Source: Actinomycetes bacterium (GTDB lineage Bacteria > Actinomycetota > Actinomycetes > DATJPE01). Taken from it: a stretch of 64,000 bases of DNA. Shown in pieces: positions 5,835 through 35,267 of the stretch. The position numbers and the translations under genes are program-made. Within the stretch, counting starts at the first letter, position 1. Each line of letters starts with the position of its first letter. The notes beneath the pieces are model-generated. The model saw only the letters and a program-made list of their open reading frames with translations. It was not told the origin of the DNA and did not search any database. The DNA lies in contig DATJPE010000063.1 of assembly GCA_035506535.1 (NCBI GenBank), positions 63,966 to 127,965 on the forward strand, in the 5' to 3' direction.

Positions 5835-6782
5835 GTGCGCACCAGGATCCGTGTTCTCGCCGGACTCTCGGCCGCCCTCGTTGTGTCTGTGACCGGCTGC
5901 AGCACCGGTTCCTCGCCGAGCGGAGCGACCTCGTCGGCGACCGGATCTGCGGCCGCGACGTCCAGGGTGATCCAGGTGGTCGCTGCAGAGAACTTCTGGG
6001 GAAGCATCGCAGCGCAGCTCGGGGGCAAGCACGTAAAGGTCACCAACATCATCGACAACCCGGATGCGGACCCACACGACTACGAGCCCACAGCCGCGGA
6101 CGGGCGTGCAATCGCTGGGGCGGACTTCGTCCTGATCAACGGGATTGGCTACGACACGTGGGCTACCAAGCTGGCAGACGCCAACCCGAATTCCTCACGC
6201 ACGGAGTTGACGGTGGGGGAGCTGCTCGGGGTTGCGGCGGGTGGCAACCCGCATCGCTGGTACAACCCCGACGACGTGCAGAAGGTCGTGGATGCGATCG
6301 CGACGGACTACGAGAAGCTCGATCCGGCCGACGCAGCGTACTTCGAGGCCCAGCAGGCCGCCTTCGAAGACACCGCGACTGCGGACTACAAGTCGGTGAT
6401 CGCCGACATCAAGGCCAAGTACTCCGGCACGCCAGTCGGAGCCTCGGAGTCGATCTTCGCGATGATCGCGCCGGCGCTCGGGCTGAACCTGCTCACGCCA
6501 CCGGACTTCCTCAAGGCGATCAGCGAGGGCACCGATCCGACGGCGGCGGACAAGGCGACGATCGACGAGCAGATCAAGGACAAGAAGATCAAGGTGTATG
6601 TGTACAACTCGCAGAACGCCACTCCGGACATCCAGCGGCAGGTCGATGAGGCGAAGGCGGCCGGCATCCCGGTGTCCACCATCACCGAGACGATGACTCC
6701 TGCGACTGACACGTGGGAGCAGTGGCAGACCACGCAACTGCGTAAGTTGCGGGACGCGTTGGCCCAGGCGGCAGGCTCTTGA
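5835..6782 (+). CDS. znuA: Metal (Zn/Mn) ABC transporter substrate-binding lipoprotein, ZnuA/TroA family
   Basis: GTG start after the AGAGGAGG RBS. It has a lipobox (LVVSVTGCS), a cluster A-I SBP fold with a His/Asp-rich stretch (DNPDADPHDYEP), and adjacency to zur. Confidence 0.8.
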   Translation: MRTRIRVLAGLSAALVVSVTGCSTGSSPSGATSSATGSAAATSRVIQVVAAENFWGSIAAQLGGKHVKVTNIIDNPDADPHDYEPTAADGRAIAGADFVLINGIGYDTWATKLADANPNSSRTELTVGELLGVAAGGNPHRWYNPDDVQKVVDAIATDYEKLDPADAAYFEAQQAAFEDTATADYKSVIADIKAKYSGTPVGASESIFAMIAPALGLNLLTPPDFLKAISEGTDPTAADKATIDEQIKDKKIKVYVYNSQNATPDIQRQVDEAKAAGIPVSTITETMTPATDTWEQWQTTQLRKLRDALAQAAGS

Positions 6783-24512: not shown

Positions 24513-27500
24513 TCAGATCTCGAGCGGCCCTGGTCGCCTCGGGTACCGCCGGCTCCCGGCGAACCCGAGGCGGTCCAGGGCCTGTTCGCTCTCGGCGTCC
24601 CAACGCCGGGCCGACTCCTCGTCACCCCGCATCCGCGCCACCCGCGCCAACTCGGCGAGGATGAACCCGCACTCGACCCGGCCCTGGGCGTCCGCCGTCT
24701 CCAGCGCTCGATGCAGCGTCTCCTCGGCGATGTCGACGTCGCCGAGGTCCACCTCGGCCGCGCCCTGCAACCGGAGCAGCCACGGCAGCAGGTAACCGGC
24801 GTCCAGCGCGGTCGCACGTACGGCTGCGTCGTCGGCGAGGTCCCGCGCCTCCTGGGCCCGCCCCTCGCCGAGCAGGCCGAGGGCGATCGCGGCGTCGGTC
24901 TCCGCTACCTCGGACGGCTCGCCGAACTCGATGAACATCGCGCGCGCTCCTTCCAGTTCGGCTTGGCCCTCGTCGTGCTGCCCCTCGAGGACCAGCGCGA
25001 GCCCGAGCGCGCGGTGGGCGACAGCGATGAAGTCGCCGACACCGGCTCCCTGCAGGGTGGGGATGAGCCGGCGCAGGATGTCCTCCGCCTCGCGGGTACG
25101 GCCGAGCCGGACGAGGACGTCACCCACGTTGCACCCGGTCTGGGCCGCACCGACCGTGTCGCCGGACTCCTCGGCGAGGCGCTGGGCGCGCTCGAACATC
25201 TCCAGCGCCTCCTGGCCGCGCCCCTGGATCCACGCCAGGACGGCGAGGTTGTTGAGCGCGCGCGATTGCCCGGCGCGAAAGCCGAGGTGCTCGTAGAGCT
25301 CCAGCGCCTGCTGCCCGTACGGCCGGTCCGGCTCGCCCCCGAGCATGGACGTCACGCCGTGCAGCGCCTCCAGCGCATCCGCCAGAGCAGCGGTGTCGCC
25401 GGAGGCCTCGGCGTCGCGTTCGGCCAGACGAGCCCACTGGAGGGCGTCCCGGTAGCGGCCCTGGTTCTCCCGGACGACCGCGTACACGCCCTCGAGCCGG
25501 CTGCGCGCGGCCAGGCTCTGGGCGTCGCCGTGCCCGTCGAGCAGCCGCAGGCCCCGTGTCACGCTTCGCAGTGCAACCGGCTGGCGGCCAAGGCGGTTCT
25601 GGATCGCCGCCTCCTCCTTGAGCACGAGGGCGGCTCGGGCCGGGTAGCCCTTGAGCCGCGCGCGTGCCCCCTTCAGCGCGACGAGCGCGGCCTCGTTGCG
25701 CCCCAACCGGTTCCGCGCCTCACCGAGGGAGAGGTAGGCCGACGCCACCTGTTCGTCGGGGACGTCGCGGAGCCCGCGCACCGAGGCGACCGCGCGCTCG
25801 AGGTGCTCCTCGGCCTCGACGTAGGCGTACTTCTCCGCCGCGCGCTCCCCGGCGAGCCGCGCGTAGTACCACGCCTTGTCGTGACGGGCCGCGTGGAAGT
25901 AGTGCAGCGACAGCAGCTCGGCCACGTCGTCCGGGTCCGACGTCCGCGCCTCGATCACCTCTCCCGCCCGCCCGTGCAGCTCGCGCCGCAGGCGGAACGG
26001 CAGTCCCTCGTACGCCGTGTCGCGCAGCAGCTGGTGGTCGAAGTGGAATCGCCCGTGCCCCTCGGCCTGGATGAAGAACGACATCCGCCGCAGCGCCGCC
26101 CGGCTCGTCGGCAGCGGGTGCCCCTGGAGCAGCGCCCGCAGCGTCGCCTCGTCGAAACGCATGCCGAGCACCGAGGCGAAACGCAGCACGGTGCGCTCGT
26201 CCGGGGGCAGGCGGTCGATCTGGCTGGTGATGAGCGCCTCGACGGTGCTCGGCAGCGCGTCGAGCGAGGCGCCTTCACGGGCCGCCAGGGCGAGGCCGCG
26301 CAGGAACAGGGGGTTGCCGTTGGCTCGGGCCGCCAGCGCGGCGACGTCGTGCGGGGCTAGCGCGGTGTCGGCGAGCGCGGCCATGACCAGCGAGCTCGCG
26401 GCTGCGGCGTCGAGCGGCGCCGGTCGGACCTCGACGACCGGGTAGCGCGGCGACGGGCGGAACCCCTCCCCGACGTCGCGGCGGGTGACCACCACGAGCC
26501 AGGGCCGACCCGCCAGGCCGAGGCACAGCTGCTCGAGCAGGTCCACGGACGCCTCGTCCATGAGGTGGACGTCGTCGAAGACCAGCACGGCCTGACCGGG
26601 CTGAACCGCCGTCGCGAGGCGTACCACCACCTCCTCGGTCCGTGACCGGCGGAACCGCTCGTCGAGCGCGTCCACCTCGGGCGTGCTCGGCAGGTCCACG
26701 TCGAGCACCTGTCCCACCAGCGGCAGCCAGGGCAGCAGCGAGGGGTCGGCACGCGTAGCGCTCTCGACCAGCGCGGCGACCAGCGTCTCCTCGTCGGCCT
26801 CCTCGGAGACGTCGAGCAGCTCGCCGAGCAGCGCCCGGAACGGCCAGTACGGCGTCGCCGTCTGGAACTCGTCGCACCGCGTGGTGAGCACCCGCGCAGG
26901 GGTGTCCCGCAGCATCTCCTCGACCAGACGCGACTTGCCGATGCCCGGCTCCCCCACGAGGTCCACGAGCTGGCCGCTGCCCGCCGCTGCCTTCTCCGCC
27001 GCCTCGCGCAGGACGCCCAGCTCGGCCTCGCGACCGATGAACGGCGAGTCCTCCCTGCCCCGACGCTCGCTGAGCAGGCGCCCGAGGCTGAACGCGTGCA
27101 CCGGCTCGGACTTGCCCTTGACCAGGAACGGCGGCATCGCCTCGGCGTCGAAGCGTGCCGCCGAGGCCTCGACCACCGCGGCCGTGGCGAGGACCTGCCC
27201 GGGCTCGGCCTTGCCCATCACCCGGGCCGCCAGGTTGATGGCGTCGCCCTTGACCGAGAACGTCTTGCGGAACGACGGGCCGAAGTCACCGGCGAAGACG
27301 GGTCCGCAGTTAACGCCGATCCGGATGGGGAGCTGCCCGACCAGGTCGACGACGTGCCGGGCCGCGCGCAGCATCCGCTCCTCGTCGTTGCCGAGGCTGA
27401 CCGGGGCCCCTGCAGTGAGCATGATCTTGCCGCCGTCACGGTTGATGTCGGACTCGAAGAAGGTCACCCCGTGCCGCTCGGTGGCGTCCTGCACGTTGCG

Positions 27501-28340
27501 CACGCACTCGTCGAGCGCCTCGGCGAGGGCCTGCGGCCCACGTTCGGCGAGGACCGCGTCGGTTCCGGAGAACTGCACGAAGGCCACCGCGATCCGCCGG
27601 TGCTCGGGCTCGCCGGACGCGCTGAGCAGGTGGGCGCGGATGTTCGGAGGGATGAGCGTGGCGAGGTCCAGACCCGCCGTCGACGGCCGCGGGACGACCT
27701 CGCTGTCCTCGACCACGGGGTCGGCCGCGAGGAGGAAGCCCCCGCCCTTGGCGTCCCCCACGCTCGACGCCTCGAGCAGGGCGGCGGTCTCGGGGGACAC
27801 GACGACCTCGCCCGCCTCGGCGATCGCCTCCATCTCGGCCGTACGGCTCGCGGCCGGCCCGCTGACGATGAGCTCGCGGTGCACGGCGGGGTCGCCGACG
27901 AGGAAGAAGTGGAACGCTCCGCTGTGAATGCCCACGGACATGCGGAGCTCGACGCGTCCCGAGCCGGTGCTGAGCTGGCCGATCCGGCGCAGCCGGGCCC
28001 GCATCCGCGAGCTGGCCAGCGCCGCCCGAGCGGCGTGGTCGGGGCCCTCGAACAGCAGGAGCACGGCGTCGCCGCCCCACTTCACCAGGCCGGCGCCCGT
28101 CGGGTAGGCAACCGAGAGCAGGTCGGCGAAGGTGGCGTTGAGAATGTCGCTCATCTCCTCCGCGCCGACCTTGCCCTTGCGGGCGAGTCGCTCGGTCAGC
28201 GCGGTGAAGCCGGAGATGTCGACGAACGCGAGCGAGCCGTCGACCTCGCGCCAGAGGGCATCGGGGGTGTCGCGCAGCCAGGTCAGGGCGAGCCGGGGGA
28301 CGTACGGCTCCAGCAGGGCCACGTCCGCGCGCTCCGCCAT
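24513..28340 (-). CDS. Multidomain STAND-type signalling protein with two class III adenylate/guanylate cyclase domains, an AAA+/NB-ARC-like ATPase and TPR repeats. It has no C-terminal HTH.
   Basis: 1275 aa. The first cyclase domain is FVDISGFTALTERL...WGGDAVLLLF and the second is IAVAFVQFSGTDAV...GDAINLAARV. The P-loop is GEPGIGKSRLVEE. About 500 aa of TPR-like repeats follow. Unlike the mycobacterial Rv0386-type proteins it lacks a LuxR HTH. Confidence 0.8.
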   Translation of the reverse strand: MAERADVALLEPYVPRLALTWLRDTPDALWREVDGSLAFVDISGFTALTERLARKGKVGAEEMSDILNATFADLLSVAYPTGAGLVKWGGDAVLLLFEGPDHAARAALASSRMRARLRRIGQLSTGSGRVELRMSVGIHSGAFHFFLVGDPAVHRELIVSGPAASRTAEMEAIAEAGEVVVSPETAALLEASSVGDAKGGGFLLAADPVVEDSEVVPRPSTAGLDLATLIPPNIRAHLLSASGEPEHRRIAVAFVQFSGTDAVLAERGPQALAEALDECVRNVQDATERHGVTFFESDINRDGGKIMLTAGAPVSLGNDEERMLRAARHVVDLVGQLPIRIGVNCGPVFAGDFGPSFRKTFSVKGDAINLAARVMGKAEPGQVLATAAVVEASAARFDAEAMPPFLVKGKSEPVHAFSLGRLLSERRGREDSPFIGREAELGVLREAAEKAAAGSGQLVDLVGEPGIGKSRLVEEMLRDTPARVLTTRCDEFQTATPYWPFRALLGELLDVSEEADEETLVAALVESATRADPSLLPWLPLVGQVLDVDLPSTPEVDALDERFRRSRTEEVVVRLATAVQPGQAVLVFDDVHLMDEASVDLLEQLCLGLAGRPWLVVVTRRDVGEGFRPSPRYPVVEVRPAPLDAAAASSLVMAALADTALAPHDVAALAARANGNPLFLRGLALAAREGASLDALPSTVEALITSQIDRLPPDERTVLRFASVLGMRFDEATLRALLQGHPLPTSRAALRRMSFFIQAEGHGRFHFDHQLLRDTAYEGLPFRLRRELHGRAGEVIEARTSDPDDVAELLSLHYFHAARHDKAWYYARLAGERAAEKYAYVEAEEHLERAVASVRGLRDVPDEQVASAYLSLGEARNRLGRNEAALVALKGARARLKGYPARAALVLKEEAAIQNRLGRQPVALRSVTRGLRLLDGHGDAQSLAARSRLEGVYAVVRENQGRYRDALQWARLAERDAEASGDTAALADALEALHGVTSMLGGEPDRPYGQQALELYEHLGFRAGQSRALNNLAVLAWIQGRGQEALEMFERAQRLAEESGDTVGAAQTGCNVGDVLVRLGRTREAEDILRRLIPTLQGAGVGDFIAVAHRALGLALVLEGQHDEGQAELEGARAMFIEFGEPSEVAETDAAIALGLLGEGRAQEARDLADDAAVRATALDAGYLLPWLLRLQGAAEVDLGDVDIAEETLHRALETADAQGRVECGFILAELARVARMRGDEESARRWDAESEQALDRLGFAGSRRYPRRPGPLEI

Positions 28341-28379: not shown

Positions 28380-30038
28380 CTATGAGCCTGACGGGGGCTC
28401 CTGCCTGAGCGCCGAGGCGAGGTCTCGGGCCCGGTGGGCGTCAGCGACCTCGCTGGCGAGCGCGTGGCCGTCCGCACTGCCGGTCACAGCCGCCAAGAAG
28501 TCGGCACCGCTCAGCACGAGCAGCCGGGCCGGGGACCGCGCCGTCACGGTGGCCGTGCGGGGCACCGACCGCAGCAGGGCCACCTCCCCGAAGGCGTGGC
28601 CCGGTGCCAGCGTCTGTGGCCGGGCGACCCCGTCGACCGTGACCGTGAACAGGCCGTCCGCGATGACGTAGAAGTCCTGCGCGTCCTCGCCCTGCACCAC
28701 GACGTCGGTGCCGGCCGTGACCTCCGTCCACCGCGCGTTCCGGGCCAGGCGCTCCAGCTCGAACTCGGGGAGCACGGCGAGGAAGCCGACGGTCCGCAGG
28801 AGGCGGATCTCGTAGGGAAGGTAGACAGCGCGGTCGTCCAGGCGCCGGATGAACCATGCGCTCCCCAGGGCGAGGGCCACGGCGCCCGCTCCCAGCGGCA
28901 CGAAGGTCTGGGCGGGATCGAGCCAGCCGAGCAGCAGCGACACGGAGGCGGCGCCGACCGCCAGCCCGACCAGCGACATCCCCTCCTGCACGGCGAAGAC
29001 CCGCGCCAGCACGGCGTCGTCGATCGCGCGTTGCAGCAACGTCCGACCGCAGACCATGAGCATCGCCTCCGCGGCCCCGACGAGGGCGATCACGACCATG
29101 GCAGCACCGAGGCCGGACACGACCGACACGACGGCGAACCCGGCACCTTCGGCCACGCCCAGGAGGACGATCGCCGGTCCGAGCCGGCGCCGCCGAGCGA
29201 TGAGCGCCGCAGCGGCTGCACCCACCAGGCCGCCGATGCCGATGGCCCCCACGACCAGGCCCGCGCCGGACTGGCCGTGGTGCAGGGTGTCGACCGAGAA
29301 CGCGACGCCGAGCACGTCCAGCGCCCCGGCGAGGAAGAACGTCGTGGTCAGCAGGACGAGCAGGGTCAGGGCGGGCCAGTCCCCGCGCAGCGAACGCAGC
29401 CCCTGGAAGGCAGCCCGCCACCCGTCGGCCTCCTCGTCGGCCGCGGCCCGACCGAGGTGCAGCCCGCTGGAGAGCAGGGTGGCGACGGCCGCCGCGATAG
29501 CCGCGCCGGCGAACACCAGCCACGGGCCGGCGTACGCGGCACCGAAGCCGGCGAGCACGGGGCCGAGGAAGGCGGCGACGCCGTCGAGCACCGAGGACAG
29601 CGAGTTCGCGGAGACGAGGTGGTCGCTGGTCCGCGACAGCTGGGGCAGGGCGGCGAAGTGGATCGGCCGCACGACGGCCACGGCGACCGTGGCCGTCGTC
29701 GACGCGGCCACGACCAGGGGCAGGGGCGCGGAGGCCAGGATGGCGATCAGGGTGAGGGTGACGGTCGCGGTCACCCCGGCGTAGGCGAGCGCGAGCGCGC
29801 GCCCTCTCGGCAGCCGGTCGCCGATCGCGGCGAGGGCCGGGGCGAGCATCGAGGCAGGGACCAGCTGGATGACGGTGACGACGCCCGCCGTGCGGGCCCC
29901 GTCGGCCGCGAAGACGTACAGGATGACCGCGAGCCAGATCGAGAACTCGACCAGCCCATAGAGGCCATAGGCCACCAGCACCCTGCGCAGCCCCGTCCGC
30001 GCCTGCAACGCCCGCAGGGTCACGGGAAGAGCACGCAT
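28380..30038 (-). CDS. MFS transporter fused to a C-terminal cyclic nucleotide-binding (CAP-effector) domain
   Basis: About 552 aa from ATG near 30038 (MRALPVTLRALQARTGLRRVLVAYGLYGL...). It has 12 predicted TM helices. The C-terminal cNMP-binding signature is FGEVALLRSVPRTATVTARSPARLLVL. Confidence 0.7.
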   Translation of the reverse strand: MRALPVTLRALQARTGLRRVLVAYGLYGLVEFSIWLAVILYVFAADGARTAGVVTVIQLVPASMLAPALAAIGDRLPRGRALALAYAGVTATVTLTLIAILASAPLPLVVAASTTATVAVAVVRPIHFAALPQLSRTSDHLVSANSLSSVLDGVAAFLGPVLAGFGAAYAGPWLVFAGAAIAAAVATLLSSGLHLGRAAADEEADGWRAAFQGLRSLRGDWPALTLLVLLTTTFFLAGALDVLGVAFSVDTLHHGQSGAGLVVGAIGIGGLVGAAAAALIARRRRLGPAIVLLGVAEGAGFAVVSVVSGLGAAMVVIALVGAAEAMLMVCGRTLLQRAIDDAVLARVFAVQEGMSLVGLAVGAASVSLLLGWLDPAQTFVPLGAGAVALALGSAWFIRRLDDRAVYLPYEIRLLRTVGFLAVLPEFELERLARNARWTEVTAGTDVVVQGEDAQDFYVIADGLFTVTVDGVARPQTLAPGHAFGEVALLRSVPRTATVTARSPARLLVLSGADFLAAVTGSADGHALASEVADAHRARDLASALRQEPPSGS

Positions 30039-30180
30039 CCGGCCGTCCCCGTCTGCTCGCCTCTTGTTTGCTGCGAGGATAGGAGGTCTGGCCACAGGAG
30101 CGCAGCGGGAACGCCGCGTCGGCGCACCAAAGGGCTGATACGTTCGAAGCACGCGTGGTGCGCCGGCGAAGGAGGGTGCG

Positions 30181-30597
30181 GTGACGCCGTACGAGATGCT
30201 CGCGCAGGTGGACCTGTTCAAGACCCTGCCGAGCGACGTCATCTACGAGATGGTCGAACGCAGCTCGACGCACCGGACCGCGCCGGGAGCGGTGCTGGTC
30301 GAGCAGGGCAGCCCCGACTCGGGCCTGCGTCTGATCATCGAGGGGACCGCGACCGTCTCGGTCAACGGGGTGGAGCGAGGCGAGATGAAGACCGGCGACT
30401 ACTTCGGCGAGATCTCCCTCATCGACTCACAGCCGCGTTCGGCGACGGTCATCGCCGGCCCGGAGGGCGTACGGACGCTCGCCATGTCGCCGCTGACCTT
30501 CTCGCAGCTGCTCGACGCTCACCCGCAGATCGCCCGCAAGCTGTTGCCGGTGCTCACGGCGCGGATCCGTCGCATCGAGGCGGCCCAGCACGACTAG
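30181..30597 (+). CDS. Stand-alone cyclic nucleotide-binding domain protein
   Basis: 138 aa. The signature is GDYFGEISLIDSQPRSATVIA (the FGE...RSA phosphate-binding cassette). There is no output domain. Confidence 0.7.
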   Translation: MTPYEMLAQVDLFKTLPSDVIYEMVERSSTHRTAPGAVLVEQGSPDSGLRLIIEGTATVSVNGVERGEMKTGDYFGEISLIDSQPRSATVIAGPEGVRTLAMSPLTFSQLLDAHPQIARKLLPVLTARIRRIEAAQHD

Positions 30598-30608
30598 GTG
30601 GTGGTGAC

Positions 30609-31439
30609 GTGCGGCTGACGCTGCTGGGGGTGCGTGGCTCCACGCCCGCGCCCGGGCGAGACTTCGTGCGCTACGGCGGGCACACCTCGTGCATCGCGGT
30701 GACGCGTGACGACGAGGACCTGCCGGATCTGGTGCTCGACGCCGGCACCGGCTTCCGCGGACTTCCCGGGCTGCTCGGCGGAGCCGCGTACGACGGCTCG
30801 ATCCTGCTCAGCCACCTGCACTGGGACCACGTCCAGGGGATCCCGTTCTGCCCCTCCGGGGACCGCGACGACTCCCGGGTCGATGTGTTCCTGCCCGCGC
30901 AGGAGGGCCTGAGCGGGCGCGACCTGTTGGCCCAGCTGATGGCACCCCCGGCGTTCCCGATCACCCCGGAGGGCCTGCGCGGTGACTGGTCCTTCCACGC
31001 GGTGCAGCCGGGAATGTTCGAGACCGACGGATACGTCGTCACCGCCTGCGAGGTGACGCACAAGGGCGGTCGCACGTACGCCTACCGCGTCGAGGCGGAC
31101 GGTGCCTCCCTCGCCTACGCCCCGGACCACGCCCCCGCGCTCGGCCTCGACGATGCCACCCTGCGCACCATGGAGGGCGTCGACCTGCTCGTTCAGGACG
31201 CGCAGTTCATCGACCGCGAACGGCTGATCGCCGACGACTACGGGCACGCGACCGTCCGGGACGCCGTCGAGCTCGCCCAGCGCGTCCATGCGCGTGCCGT
31301 CCTGCTCTTCCACCACGGGCCGGGGCGCAAGGATGACGACCTCGACCGCATCGCCGACGACATCGCCGCGGACGTCACGGTCCTCACCGCCTACGAGGGC
31401 ATGGTCCTCGACGTGACGAGCCGGACCATGAGCCGGTGA
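30609..31439 (+). CDS. MBL-fold metallo-hydrolase (candidate class II-like cNMP phosphodiesterase or nuclease)
   Basis: GTG 30609 follows AGGTGGTGA. The SHLHWDHVQG motif matches HxHxDH. It is the last 277 codons of the artefactual 1001-aa ORF 28434..31439. Its stop overlaps the next gene's start. Confidence 0.7.
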   Translation: MRLTLLGVRGSTPAPGRDFVRYGGHTSCIAVTRDDEDLPDLVLDAGTGFRGLPGLLGGAAYDGSILLSHLHWDHVQGIPFCPSGDRDDSRVDVFLPAQEGLSGRDLLAQLMAPPAFPITPEGLRGDWSFHAVQPGMFETDGYVVTACEVTHKGGRTYAYRVEADGASLAYAPDHAPALGLDDATLRTMEGVDLLVQDAQFIDRERLIADDYGHATVRDAVELAQRVHARAVLLFHHGPGRKDDDLDRIADDIAADVTVLTAYEGMVLDVTSRTMSR

Positions 31440-31918
31440 GCGAGCTCCTCGCGCTGTGCGCCGACCTGCCCGTCGAGGCTGTTCCGCCCGGACAGACCCT
31501 CATCGTCGAGGGTGACGCCCCGGGCCCGATGTACGTGCTGCGCACCGGCAGCGTCAGCGTCGAACGCGACGGCGTACCGGTGGCCCGCATCCACGCCTCC
31601 GGTGCGGTCCTCGGCGAGATGTCCGTCGTCCTGGAGCGACCCGCCACCGCGACGGTACGCGCGGAGCAGGAGGTGACGGTCCACGTCGTCGAGGACCCTC
31701 ACGACTTCCTCAGCGCCAACCCTGGCGCCGCGCTGGCGGTGCTGCGCACGACGGCGGCGCGGCTCGACGGGATGACGCAGTACCTCGTGGACGTCAAGCA
31801 GCAGTACGCCGGTCTGGGCGGCCACCTGGCGATGGTCGACCAGATCCTGGACGCCCTGGTCCACCACCAGCCGTCGACCGCGCGGACCGGGTCCGTCCGT
31901 GACCCCGAGGTGGGCTGA
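31436..31918 (+). CDS. Stand-alone cyclic nucleotide-binding domain protein (second copy)
   Basis: 160 aa. The signature GEMSVVLERPATATVRAEQEVTV is a cNMP-binding cassette. There is an ATGA overlap with the MBL hydrolase gene. Confidence 0.7.
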   Translation: MSELLALCADLPVEAVPPGQTLIVEGDAPGPMYVLRTGSVSVERDGVPVARIHASGAVLGEMSVVLERPATATVRAEQEVTVHVVEDPHDFLSANPGAALAVLRTTAARLDGMTQYLVDVKQQYAGLGGHLAMVDQILDALVHHQPSTARTGSVRDPEVG

Positions 31919-31967
31919 GGGTCCGCCGGCGAGGCCGGCCGACGCGGAGCCCTGCGATCCGGAAGCC

Positions 31968-32687
31968 TCAGGCCAGGTCCACCGTCTGCCGGTCGAAGAC
32001 GCCGTACCACTCCGCGGTGCCCCGCTCGGTGTCGAGGGTGATGTGCGGGGGCACCGGGCCGACCTGGCGCCCGGCGTTGAACACCCACGTCGAGCCGATC
32101 CGGGCATGCCACGAGCCGCCCTCGACCCACGGCGCCTGGTGGATGTGCCCGCACAGCACCGCGAACGGCTGGTAACGCTCGATCCAGGACGTGAGGTCGT
32201 GGTCGGGGAACTCGCGCCGGCCGTCGCTGCACAGCACCGTGCCGGCGGGCGGGGCGTGGTAGAGCCACACCCACGTGTCCGGCCGGTCCACCGCGGCCGC
32301 TTGCAGCAGGGCGTCGACCTCGGCCCTGGCCGTCGGCCCGTCCCACCAGGGGCAGACCGTGAAGCGCACGCCGTCGATGTCGACCGAGGCGCCGTCCGCG
32401 TGCAGGCCGGGCGCGCTGAGCAGGCGCAGCCAGCCGGCGACCTGCTCGCCGTCGCGACCCGGCCCGTCGAGGTCGTGGTTGCCGGACGCGGCGAGGACGG
32501 TGGCTCGCTCGGCCAGCTGTCCGAGATAGCGCTCGAGGACGACGACCTGGACCTCGTGCGGCACCGGGCTCACCACGTCGGCGAGGTCGCCGGGCAACGC
32601 GACCACGTCGACGTCCGCGGCGGCCTGGACGAGCCAGTCGTAGTGCGGCAGCCGGTAGTGCAGGTCCGAGGCCACGAGGACGCGCAC
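31968..32687 (-). CDS. Calcineurin-like metallophosphoesterase, CpdA/Rv0805-like class III cyclic nucleotide phosphodiesterase candidate
   Basis: 239 aa from GTG 32687. The motifs D-x-H (ASDLHY), GD (LPGDL), GNHD (ASGNHDLD) and GH..GHIH (CGHIHQ) match the class III PDE signature set. Confidence 0.6.
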   Translation of the reverse strand: MRVLVASDLHYRLPHYDWLVQAAADVDVVALPGDLADVVSPVPHEVQVVVLERYLGQLAERATVLAASGNHDLDGPGRDGEQVAGWLRLLSAPGLHADGASVDIDGVRFTVCPWWDGPTARAEVDALLQAAAVDRPDTWVWLYHAPPAGTVLCSDGRREFPDHDLTSWIERYQPFAVLCGHIHQAPWVEGGSWHARIGSTWVFNAGRQVGPVPPHITLDTERGTAEWYGVFDRQTVDLA

Positions 32688-32738
32688 CCGCGGATCGTCG
32701 CAGCCTCGTGTTACGCCGGTGGGAACGCGCGATCTCGG

Positions 32739-33482
32739 ATGTGGTTCCTGGATCGGCCTACCCTGGGCACCGTGACGACGTACGGGCTCGTCCACGGCGC
32801 CTACCACGGGGCATGGTGCTGGTCCGACGTCGTGACCGAGCTCGAGCGACGGGGGCACCGCGCGCTGACCGTGGACCTGCCCTCGGAGGACCCCACGGCC
32901 GCGGGCCGGGAGTACGCCGCTGCCGCGCTCGAGGCGTTCTCCTCGGCCGGCGAGGACCTCGTCCTCGTCGGCCACTCCCTGGGTGGGCTCACCATCCCCC
33001 TGGTGGCCGCCGCGCGGCCGGTCGCCCACCTGGTGTTCGTCGCCGCGATGCTGCCGCGGGTGGGGCGCAGCCTGGACGAGGTGCTGGCCGAGGAGGCCGA
33101 CATGGTCCTGCCCGGACCGCCGCACGGCGCGTACGTCGACGCGGCCGGGCTCGTCCGCTTCCACCCGGAGGTGGCGGCCGCCTGGTTCTTCGCGGACTGC
33201 TCGCCCGCGGTGGCCGCGCGTGCCGCCGCCCGGCTGCGGGGCCAGTGGTGGGGCATCAGCAACGAGGTCACCCCGCTCCAGGCCTGGCCTGACGTGCCGA
33301 TGACCTACGTCCTCGGGGTGGCCGACCCGGTCATCAACCCCGCCTGGTCGCGACGGGTCGTCCCGGCGGTGCTCGGCGGGCGACCGGTCGAGCTCCCCGG
33401 CGGGCACTCGCCGTTCCTGGCCCGGCCGGGCGAGCTGGTCGACGCCCTCCTCCTGGCGTGCGAGGGCTCCTCCGACGGCTGA
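32739..33482 (+). CDS. Alpha/beta hydrolase fold protein
   Basis: It has the nucleophile elbow GHSLGG. It is the tail of ORF 31899..33482, which is otherwise antisense to the phosphoesterase. Confidence 0.65.
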   Translation: MWFLDRPTLGTVTTYGLVHGAYHGAWCWSDVVTELERRGHRALTVDLPSEDPTAAGREYAAAALEAFSSAGEDLVLVGHSLGGLTIPLVAAARPVAHLVFVAAMLPRVGRSLDEVLAEEADMVLPGPPHGAYVDAAGLVRFHPEVAAAWFFADCSPAVAARAAARLRGQWWGISNEVTPLQAWPDVPMTYVLGVADPVINPAWSRRVVPAVLGGRPVELPGGHSPFLARPGELVDALLLACEGSSDG

Positions 33483-33492
33483 CACTGGAGGG

Positions 33493-34404
33493 GTGCCCGC
33501 CCTCCTCGACGTCGCCCGCGTCCTCCCGGTGAACCCGGTGGCGCGAACGTTCCGCCGGATCGTCTCCGGCGACCCGCAGGGGCGACCCGAGTGGATCCGG
33601 GCGCTCGAGGACGGAACGGACGCCGGCCTCTTCGGCCCCGGGTCCGCGCCGTGGGCGGTGCACGGCAGCACGACGACGCTCATCGGAGGCGTACGTGCGC
33701 TGCTCCTCCAGGCCCTGCACCCGGCAGCGCTGGCCGGGGTCCGGGACCACTCGCGCTATCGCGACGATGCCCTGGGCCGCCTGGCCGGCACGTCGCGGTG
33801 GCTGGTGACGCTCACCTTCGGCGACTCCCGGGCGGTGGAACGCGAGTCGGCACGCGTGCGCGGGATGCACACCAGGGTCCGGGGGCTGATGCTGGACCCT
33901 CAGGGCGACCTGCGACCGTACGCCGCGAGCGACCCGCACCTGCTGCGCTGGGTGCACCTGGCCTTCACCGACTCCTTCCTGGTGGCCCACGAGGTGTGGG
34001 GCGCCGCGATCCCCGGAGGCCCCGACGCCTACGTCGGTGAGTGGGGGCGGGCGGCTGAGCTGCTCGGCCTCGACGACCCGCCGCGATCGGTCGTCGAGCT
34101 GCGCGATCAGCTGCACGGCTACGACGACGAGCTCGACGGCGGGACTGACGCCCGGGAGGTCGCGCGCTTCATCCTCAACCCTCCCCTGCCGCTGGCGGCC
34201 CGGCCTGCCTACGCCGTCCTCGCGAGCGCCGCGGTGTCCACACTGGAGCCGCGGCACCGCGAGCTGCTCGAGCTGACCGCGCTCCCGCTGACGCTCACCC
34301 GCCCGATGGCCGGCGCCCTGCTCAGGGGGCTGGGCGTGGCGCTGGGATCGACCTCGCCCAGCGAGCGCGCCGCGCGGCAGCGGCTGGACCGGGTCCTCGC
34401 CTGA
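33493..34404 (+). CDS. DUF2236 / MpaB-family oxygenase-like protein
   Basis: 303 aa. The conserved HP...R.H motifs and length are typical of the ER-bound oxygenase mpaB/DUF2236 family. The assignment rests on pattern recognition only. Confidence 0.5.
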   Translation: MPALLDVARVLPVNPVARTFRRIVSGDPQGRPEWIRALEDGTDAGLFGPGSAPWAVHGSTTTLIGGVRALLLQALHPAALAGVRDHSRYRDDALGRLAGTSRWLVTLTFGDSRAVERESARVRGMHTRVRGLMLDPQGDLRPYAASDPHLLRWVHLAFTDSFLVAHEVWGAAIPGGPDAYVGEWGRAAELLGLDDPPRSVVELRDQLHGYDDELDGGTDAREVARFILNPPLPLAARPAYAVLASAAVSTLEPRHRELLELTALPLTLTRPMAGALLRGLGVALGSTSPSERAARQRLDRVLA

Positions 34405-34418
34405 GCGAGGATGGTGCG

Positions 34419-35267
34419 ATGCGGCTCGACACCGCCTCGCGCGTCGATGCCCTCGCCGAGCTCGTGGCGGGCGGCGACGTCGTGGTGCTCAGCGGCGCGG
34501 GCCTGTCGACCGAGTCCGGCATCCCGGACTATCGCGGGCCGAGCGGGGCGAGCCGGCGCCGACCGCCGATGACCTATCGCGCCTTCGTGGACGACCCGGT
34601 GGCCCGCCGCCGCTACTGGGCGCGCAGCCATCTCGGCTGGCGGCACCTCTCGAGCGTCGGACCGAACGCCGGCCACCGCGCCGTGGCCGCCCTCGAGCAC
34701 AGCGGCGTGCTCGTGGGCACGATCACCCAGAACGTCGACGGCCTCCACCAGCGGGCCGGGTCGCACGGGGTGCTCGACCTGCACGGCCGCCTCGACCGCG
34801 TGGTCTGCCTGGACTGTCGCGCCGTGGTGTCCCGCGAGGAGGTGGCGGCCCGGATGAGCGCAGCCAACGCCTCGTGGGACGCCGAGGCGACGGCGCTGAA
34901 CCCCGACGGCGACGCCGACGTACCCGATGGGCAGCTCGACGGCTTCGTCGTCGTGGCCTGCGAGCGCTGCGGCGGGACGTTGAAGCCGGACGTCGTCTAC
35001 TTCGGCGAGAACGTCCCGGTGGCGCGGGTCGCGGCGGCCAACGACTGGGTCGACTGGGCCCGCGCGGTGCTCGTGCTGGGATCCTCGCTGACGGTGTTCT
35101 CCGGCCGTCGGTTCGTGATTCGGGCCGCCCGCGCGGGCAAGGCCGTCGCGATCGTCAACGACGGGCCCACCCGCTGCGACGACCTGGCGGGGATCCGGCT
35201 GCACGGCCGGCTCGGCGTCACCCTGACGCGGTTGGCCGACGCGATCGGGTCAGGCGCCGGGCTCTGA
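34419..35267 (+). CDS. NAD-dependent protein deacylase, Sir2 family (sirtuin)
   Basis: Motifs GAGLSTESGIPDYRG, TQNVDGLH and the Zn ribbon CxxC...CxxC (CLDC...CERC). Confidence 0.85.
   Translation: MRLDTASRVDALAELVAGGDVVVLSGAGLSTESGIPDYRGPSGASRRRPPMTYRAFVDDPVARRRYWARSHLGWRHLSSVGPNAGHRAVAALEHSGVLVGTITQNVDGLHQRAGSHGVLDLHGRLDRVVCLDCRAVVSREEVAARMSAANASWDAEATALNPDGDADVPDGQLDGFVVVACERCGGTLKPDVVYFGENVPVARVAAANDWVDWARAVLVLGSSLTVFSGRRFVIRAARAGKAVAIVNDGPTRCDDLAGIRLHGRLGVTLTRLADAIGSGAGL

Follow-up and report, generated by a model that had tools for sequence, protein, structure and literature searches.

What does a metallo-β-lactamase (MBL)-fold hydrolase do when its gene stands between two genes for small cyclic nucleotide-binding (CNB) proteins? 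The question is raised by positions 30181-31918 of a 64-kb stretch of DNA (contig DATJPE010000063.1, here called the window) from an uncultured soil Actinomycetes bacterium, in which three consecutive same-strand genes encode a first CNB protein (CNB1), the hydrolase (hereafter MBL) and a second CNB protein (CNB2). On balance, MBL is probably a binuclear-metal 3',5'-cyclic nucleoside monophosphate (cNMP) phosphodiesterase (PDE), and the region is best read as an island of cyclic-nucleotide signalling, most likely by cyclic AMP (cAMP), in which two sensor-hydrolase pairs have come together. The diversity of the CNB partners found beside MBL genes is the strongest evidence that this enzyme acts in cNMP signalling.

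The same-strand order cNMP-binding / MBL / cNMP-binding, as given in a preliminary description of this DNA, was confirmed by the open reading frames (ORFs) and their Pfam domains. CNB1 (30181-30597, + strand; 138 aa; PF00027, 46.8 bits) starts with GTG, 5 nt downstream of a Shine-Dalgarno sequence, AAGGAGG, read directly at 30169-30175 (+), and ends with a TAG stop codon whose last base is 30597. MBL (30609-31439, +; 276 aa; Lactamase_B_2, PF12706, 73.2 bits against a cut-off of 27) also starts with GTG, and CNB2 (31436-31918, +; 160 aa) has a CRP-like cNMP-binding fold (PF00027, 49.4 bits). Both CNB proteins had been called output-less, and no other Pfam domain was found in either. The overlapping start and stop codons that had been reported for the trio hold for one junction only: direct reading places the CNB2 start GTG (31436-31438) and the MBL stop TGA (31437-31439) within a shared GTGA (31436-31439, +), the layout expected for translational coupling of MBL and CNB2, whereas CNB1 and MBL are separated, tightly but without overlap, by an 11-nt Shine-Dalgarno-like spacer (ggtggtggtga, 30598-30608, +). 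The three protein lengths were also obtained by independent gene calls on the source contig, the N-termini agree with those of homologues, which supports the start codons, and the contig is 72% GC with uniform base composition. The MBL protein is 100% identical to a protein from a metagenome-assembled genome (MAG) at NCBI, and the locus is present on three assemblies.

One genome per species was scanned, giving at least 516 confirmed MBL orthologue loci. Neighbourhood counts were taken from the best 80 of these, which come from different species and are not phylogenetically independent, with a CNB-domain hidden Markov model built iteratively from the 80 loci. These span Actinomycetes, Acidimicrobiia, Solirubrobacterales (Thermoleophilia) and Nitriliruptorales (Nitriliruptoria), that is, four classes. 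Of the 80 loci, 43 have a CNB-domain ORF no more than 200 bp from MBL; the number rises to 55 at a limit of 1 kb and to 59 at 6 kb. The CNB ORFs crowd towards the gene: 62 stand 0-1 kb away and 14 at 2-6 kb, which makes them approximately 18 times denser, per kilobase, in the first interval. Among its roughly 4000 genes, Mycobacterium tuberculosis has about 10 for CNB proteins, so that the chance of finding a CNB gene as an immediate neighbour is well below 1%. The partners vary. At least six architectures were found (free CNB, major facilitator superfamily (MFS)-CNB, MFS-CNB-patatin, CNB-patatin, glutaminase-CNB and novel domain-CNB) in three orientations (upstream on the same strand, convergent and divergent), and a CNB-bearing gene sits 0-11 nt upstream of MBL in about 25 of the 80 loci. 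This adjacency strongly ties the MBL enzyme to cNMP signalling, and the variety of partners and orientations implies that proximity was selected for repeatedly and independently and was not simply inherited as synteny. For the preliminary description, MBL homologues that are never linked to CNB genes would have counted against its reading, and the counts show the opposite; its remark that neither of the arrangements it envisaged is standard was overstated, since CNB linkage is the commonest arrangement of the MBL family and a fused PDE with one MBL and two CNB domains is known from Dictyostelium (PMC11988041).

It could be argued that MBL and its CNB neighbours stand together by inherited gene order only, without functional meaning, given that the 80 loci are not independent and that 21 of them have no CNB gene within 6 kb. 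However, the adjacency persists across all four classes with differing architectures, orientations and orders, and the density of CNB ORFs is steeply concentrated around MBL; persistence with differing partners and orders indicates a linkage that was repeatedly re-created and not inherited, and a meaningless adjacency is highly improbable.

One of the tightly spaced upstream partners is a protein of about 330 aa encoded 0-10 bp upstream of MBL in about 23 loci from Acidimicrobiia, Solirubrobacterales and Streptosporangiales (L032-L036, L041, L043, L047, L049, L052, L053, L056, L057, L059-L061, L063, L079 and L080 among them). Its gene is placed about 1 kb upstream of position 6000 of these loci, and the protein consists of a conserved 214-aa N-terminal domain, without a Pfam match and with the motifs SLSWIPSEA, FRFAN, GDGWVRFxQTxGGRTG, WTTLSLT, FPRHWVYD and TPWG, followed by a canonical CNB domain to which it is always fused there. 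Elsewhere, three to four CNB-domain genes (two or three MFS-CNB genes plus a small CNB gene) are stacked beside MBL, as in L165 (1-4819), L168 (20-4743), L002 and L027; these dense CNB islands are consistent with tandem duplication of MFS-CNB genes.

The MBL family itself is large, with more than 6000 homologues at E < 1e-5, and the best 120 of these each have a single domain and about 270-300 aa, with 59-74% identity to the window protein. Ten metal-binding residues (H69, H71, D73, H74, H151, D173, D197, H213, H235 and H236) show no variation across 118 homologues; the metal motif reads S68-H-L-H-W-D-H74, with S68 at least 90% conserved in the same 118 sequences, and the subfamily has further invariant motifs of its own (LGVRGS, RYGGHTSC, PPAFPITPEGL, HKGGR, PDHAP and FHHxPxRxD). 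Because the metal-binding residues and the family motifs are invariant, the protein looks like an active enzyme. The SHLHWDH motif fits the signature [T/S]HxHxDH which, within PF12706, defines the 'atypical class II PDEs' Rv1339 of M. tuberculosis, YhfI of Bacillus subtilis and CpdA of C. glutamicum (Thomson et al., PMC9293780), and YhfI prefers cAMP and cGMP as substrates (PMC9117128). The window protein resembles these enzymes in consisting of one PF12706 MBL domain in about 250-280 aa with that signature, in its actinobacterial host and cAMP-signalling context, and in its fold: in a Foldseek search with its AlphaFold model (predicted local distance difference test score, pLDDT, 93), YhfI ranked first (E 2.9e-15), followed by RNase Z, a B. 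anthracis ELAC homologue and PhnP-family enzymes, which places it in a YhfI-like fold. With this ranking, glyoxalase II and true metallo-β-lactamases were excluded as the closest structural class, and a β-lactamase or glyoxalase II type of enzyme, which for the preliminary description would have spoken against its reading, was not found. It differs from Rv1339, YhfI and CpdA in the Trp of its metal motif and in its own invariant motifs; it also differs from Rv1339 in that its subfamily systematically adjoins CNB genes, the term 'cyclic nucleotide-binding' being absent from PMC9293780.

Several observations weigh against a cNMP PDE. The canonical class II type, to which the preliminary description had likened the locus, was excluded on both counts on which it was judged: the metal motif reads HLHWDH and not HxHLDH (as the latter is quoted in PMC9293780), and PF02112 (PDEase_II) gave no match up to E 1 for the window MBL and 21 homologues. 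In the metal motif Trp takes the place of Leu, and VQGIPF follows, with P-F as the downstream hydrophobic pair; the extended class II PROSITE pattern fails as well. With the NCBIfam equivalog model for Rv1339-type enzymes, NF041851, the score was 39.6 bits, where the cut-off is 400 and the RNase Z models did at least as well, and the nearest solved relatives by sequence are RNase Z structures, which the family profile matched at E 6.6e-13, with ELAC1 and PhnP also matched and YhfI reached at E 1.5e-3; identity to these solved relatives is 15-23%. To these points are added the 21 loci without a CNB neighbour and the CNB1 homologues that have no MBL neighbour and lie instead beside a DUF6855 gene (L169) or, in Kribbella, a cyclase-AAA gene (L171). 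Co-transcription of the trio is deduced from gene spacing, with no promoter or terminator detectable (a scan of 29900-32800 found none, and such a scan is uninformative at 72% GC), and cNMP hydrolysis is a prediction for every member of the subfamily.

The same sequence relationships lend themselves to a different reading, in which MBL would be a nuclease of the RNase Z/RNase BN kind or some other phosphoesterase, acting for instance on 2',3'-cNMP, on a phosphonate or diphosphate ester or as a sulfatase, and placed under cNMP control through its CNB neighbours. Equivalents of the RNase Z 'HEAT' and 'HST' motifs (DAQF and GHAT) align in MBL, PhnP-family diphosphatases and an arylsulfatase are among its further top fold matches, and annotation pipelines of the Joint Genome Institute (JGI) label homologues 'phosphoribosyl 1,2-cyclic phosphodiesterase' or 'ribonuclease BN'. 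The curated scores nevertheless fall far below the family cut-offs, at 53.9 against 292.95 bits for RNase Z (TIGR02651, all RNase Z models giving at most 54 bits) and 26.7 against 272.25 bits for PhnP (TIGR03307). When MBL is aligned with B. subtilis RNase Z (1y44), query residues 164-188 face target residues 152-222, leaving about 46 residues absent at the position of the tRNA-binding flexible arm. No β-CASP, nucleic-acid-binding or other added domain was found in the 276-aa single-domain protein, and no phn or carbon-phosphorus (C-P) lyase genes were found among the neighbours of MBL in the window or on the source contig. RNase Z, including RNase BN (ElaC), was accordingly excluded by its score and the absent arm, and PhnP by its score and the absence of a C-P lyase operon. 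Persistent adjacency to many kinds of CNB protein is also more simply explained by a shared small-molecule ligand, and a nuclease or other esterase under cNMP control is rated as possible but unlikely. Judged from sequence and fold, MBL represents a distinct actinobacterial subfamily, and a widespread one, within the RNase Z/YhfI/PhnP clade of phosphodiesterases; its substrate is settled by neither of the two, and a cNMP is inferred.

The two CNB proteins of the window turned out to be quite different from each other. Both resemble CRP/GlxR receptors and stand-alone CNB proteins in combining a β-roll with a C-helix, and both differ from CRP/GlxR in having no helix-turn-helix (HTH) output. CNB1 belongs to a family of 183 proteins of 137-142 aa from Actinomycetes MAGs and Kribbella, and its cassette is canonical, with G76-E77 and R86-S87-A88 invariant in 31 family members, so that it is predicted to be competent to bind ligand. 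It stands directly upstream of MBL, with spacers of 8-11 nt, in L164 (the closest relative, with 74% MBL identity), L168 and L170, and directly upstream also in L028; in L016 it is divergent from MBL. CNB2, by comparison, represents a highly conserved family of 850 proteins with 65-74% identity over the full length, in which G60-E61 of the cassette is conserved and the arginine position is occupied by Ala70 (P69-A70-T71-A72-T73, PATATV, versus P-R-S-A-T in CNB1). Every one of 28 sequences has this alanine, and in 100 sequences its conservation is at least 90%. CNB2 further departs from CRP/GlxR in an added helix and in a conserved C-terminal extension of 45 residues, of which residues 114-157 are near-invariant (TQYLVDVKQQFAG..GHLGMVDQILDTLVHHQ...GSxRDPE) and the last 18 or so, the HHQ...GSxRDPE tail, are predicted to be disordered. 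Its AlphaFold2 model (pLDDT 88) shows a β-roll, a 29-residue C-helix, a second helix and the disordered tail, and the structures that match its fold best are the cAMP-binding N-domains from CRP, GlxR and MtbCRP; CNB2 looks like a CRP-type dimer without the DNA-binding domain.

The partner of CNB2 is also a different one. Directly after it, and convergent with it, lies a gene for a calcineurin-like metallophosphoesterase (MPE; 31968-32687, - strand; 239 aa; PF00149 and PF12850). CNB2 neighbourhoods were examined in 80 metagenomic loci (L084-L163), 53 of which have room downstream for this gene, and a convergent MPE was present in 51 of the 53, as well as in all eight MBL loci that carry a CNB2 orthologue. 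Only one further lineage, L140, has MBL immediately before CNB2, with an 18-nt spacer; MBL lies beyond MPE, on the MPE strand, in 5 of the 31 CNB2 loci with enough flank, and the genome loci L001-L005 have the order MBL(+), MPE(+), CNB2(-). The symmetrical picture drawn in the preliminary description, of two regulatory subunits flanking one enzyme, therefore fails, given that CNB2 has no cassette arginine, is paired with MPE and is so rarely found directly behind MBL. CNB2 may instead be a pseudo-receptor or adaptor with MPE as its main partner and with a partner-binding tail. MPE carries the generic metallophosphoesterase blocks DxH, GD, GNHD, H and GHIH, and its family alignment shows 79% mean column identity with many invariant Trp and Cys residues; no informative relative was found in the PDB or NCBIfam, the best matches being SbcD/Mre11 at E ~0.01. 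It may be a second cNMP PDE or a nucleotidase. Its matches to PDC-S10, a candidate-defence family of PADLOC (E 2.6e-10), and to a metallo-phosphoesterase family of PHROGs (E 6e-5) probably reflect generic fold similarity. Since a CNB gene followed by MBL and a convergent CNB2/MPE pair recur separately, the triad of the window is a local juxtaposition of two older modules, a lineage-specific rearrangement that placed the CNB2/MPE module directly behind the CNB1-to-MBL module.

How closely the CNB proteins and the hydrolase might cooperate is another matter. The Dictyostelium enzymes GbpA (PdeD) and GbpB (PdeE) are class IIb cNMP-stimulated PDEs in which cNMP, on two fused CNB domains, activates the MBL domain (PMC11988041), and the window resembles them in pairing an MBL-type catalytic module with two cNMP-binding modules, an arrangement in which, by analogy, the substrate could also be the activator. 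On this precedent CNB1, and possibly CNB2, would be regulatory subunits acting in trans that switch the PDE activity of an MBL dimer in response to cNMP, making the trio a multi-subunit counterpart of GbpA/GbpB. The 11-nt spacing and the 4-nt overlap would suit such a holoenzyme, as would the many loci with a CNB gene 0-11 nt upstream of MBL and the conserved, predicted-disordered tail of CNB2, which is of a kind typical of partner-binding motifs, and Bd1971 (6hq4) offers a bacterial case of CNB domains gating a phosphodiesterase. GbpA and GbpB are, however, single polypeptides with both CNB domains C-terminal, whereas the window has three genes in the order CNB-MBL-CNB, and one of its CNB proteins, CNB2, has a degenerate cassette and another main partner, MPE being its constant companion rather than MBL. 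The upstream partner of MBL moreover varies between a free CNB protein, an MFS protein, a glutaminase fusion and the 330-aa novel-domain fusion, so that a common docking mode is not obvious, and a shared pathway fits this variety better than a fixed heteromeric holoenzyme. No MBL-CNB fusion was found among the best 120 MBL homologues. Four apparent CNB-MBL fusions among the scanned loci were set aside: in L044 (4900-6837), from an Acidimicrobiaceae MAG, the novel domain-CNB gene is split over two frames with one part in frame with the MBL ORF, most likely by an assembly frameshift, and those in L013, L051 and L079 are long stop-to-stop ORFs judged, without individual checking, to be high-GC read-through. 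On the whole, it is possible but doubtful that the CNB proteins bind MBL or control it allosterically. A bolder proposal, that the subfamily is a new family of cNMP PDEs gated in trans by single-domain CNB proteins, a split counterpart of GbpA/GbpB and perhaps a relative of their evolutionary source, with CNB2 as an arginine-less pseudo-receptor whose HHQ...GSxRDPE tail would couple MBL and MPE into one cAMP-degrading pathway, is entertained as speculation and considered unlikely.

The favoured reading, a cNMP PDE within a signalling island, can be set out in terms of the neighbouring genes, three of which, those for an MFS-CNB protein, a cyclase and MPE, are relevant to it but fell outside the coordinates of the preliminary description. 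On the opposite strand and divergent from CNB1, an MFS-CNB gene (28380-30038, -; 552 aa; PF07690 and PF00027) encodes a transporter with a C-terminal cNMP-binding domain, whose cassette is canonical (FGE...PRTATV) in a BLASTP alignment to CNB1. It is followed by a gene for a class III nucleotidyl cyclase-AAA_16-TPR protein of 1275 aa (24513-28340, -; PF00211, 82 bits in two stretches; PF13191, 83 bits; PF13424, 78 bits). Both gene calls are also present on the source contig. In the cyclase, the first Guanylate_cyc stretch retains the metal-binding Asp (FVDISGFT) and a KWGGDA motif, and the second, with FVQFSG, looks degenerate, a pattern suggestive of a pseudo-heterodimeric catalytic core; this protein is likely to be a local source of cAMP. 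The 64-kb window holds three CNB-domain ORFs (CNB1, CNB2 and MFS-CNB), and all lie inside this cluster. Cytoplasmic MBL would hydrolyse to 5'-NMP the 3',5'-cNMP that class III cyclases make, for instance the neighbouring one, which would end the cyclase signal. MBL would share a transcript with the upstream CNB1 gene and be coupled in translation to the downstream CNB2 gene, and with the CNB1 cassette intact a receptor and the enzyme degrading its ligand would thus be made together.

Regulation of the cluster by a cAMP-CRP loop was considered and dropped, as no TGTGA-N6-TCACA-like site was found in the 30039-30180 promoter region; in the whole window there are 4 matches with at most two mismatches against 10.7 expected, none of them intergenic here. 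Rfam and tRNA scans gave no match near the locus. Downstream of MPE come genes for an α/β hydrolase, an MpaB/Lcp-family protein and a Sir2 deacetylase. The last two, an MpaB/Lcp-family oxygenase-like gene (33493-34404, +) and a Sir2-family deacetylase gene (34419-35267, +), stand directly 3' of the cluster. Mycobacterial protein acetylation is under cAMP control via Pat, and the Sir2 neighbour may merit attention in this light.

The combination of a cyclase with CNB proteins also recalls anti-phage signalling, and the cluster could be taken for a Pycsar-like defence system of cyclase and CNB effector, or MBL for a host regulator of such a system resembling phage Apyc1. The PADLOC models of PycTIR and Pycsar effectors match CNB1, CNB2 and MFS-CNB with E values down to 1.3e-20, and the PycC models match the cyclase weakly. 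Apyc1 (PF23023; PMC9117128) shares the MBL fold with the window protein and is a homodimeric cNMP PDE of similar size, and weak or faint precomputed PF23023 matches occur on many MBL homologues. The PADLOC matches, though, cover the generic CNB part only, with no TIR or transmembrane effector domain on CNB1 or CNB2, and a Pycsar system was excluded, these matches reflecting generic CNB and cyclase homology. Searches of MBL against PADLOC and PHROGs, and of the whole triad against PHROGs, found nothing; PF23023 gave no match at E 1 for the window MBL and reached 0.014 in 1 of 22 family members, so that with no PF23023 match and no phage context Apyc1 was excluded as well. The MBL family is besides a conserved chromosomal gene across four Actinomycetota classes and the base composition around it is uniform, and a phage-related role is exceedingly improbable.

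No description of this MBL subfamily or of its linkage to CNB genes was found in the searchable literature; its components are of known kinds, an MBL-fold PDE and CNB receptors, and Dictyostelium offers a fused analogue. Cyclases and cNMP-binding proteins are numerous in Actinobacteria, mycobacteria and antibiotic producers among them. To our knowledge few enzymes that remove cAMP have been identified in them, those of M. tuberculosis being only Rv0805 and Rv1339. The MBL family described here is uncharacterised and has thousands of members, among them proteins of cultured Nocardioides, Nonomuraea, Jiangella and Planotetraspora; the orthologues at L031, L033 and L079 belong to Nocardioides sp. 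SR21, Nonomuraea angiospora and Jiangella muralis DSM 45357, respectively. The analysis has also brought to light two unstudied conserved modules, the arginine-less CNB2 with its MPE and the 214-aa novel domain fused to a CNB domain. The MBL subfamily is a concrete candidate for a further cNMP PDE family, linked to cNMP receptors of many architectures, and if small CNB proteins do regulate MBL, it would be the first bacterial MBL PDE with a separate cNMP-sensor subunit.

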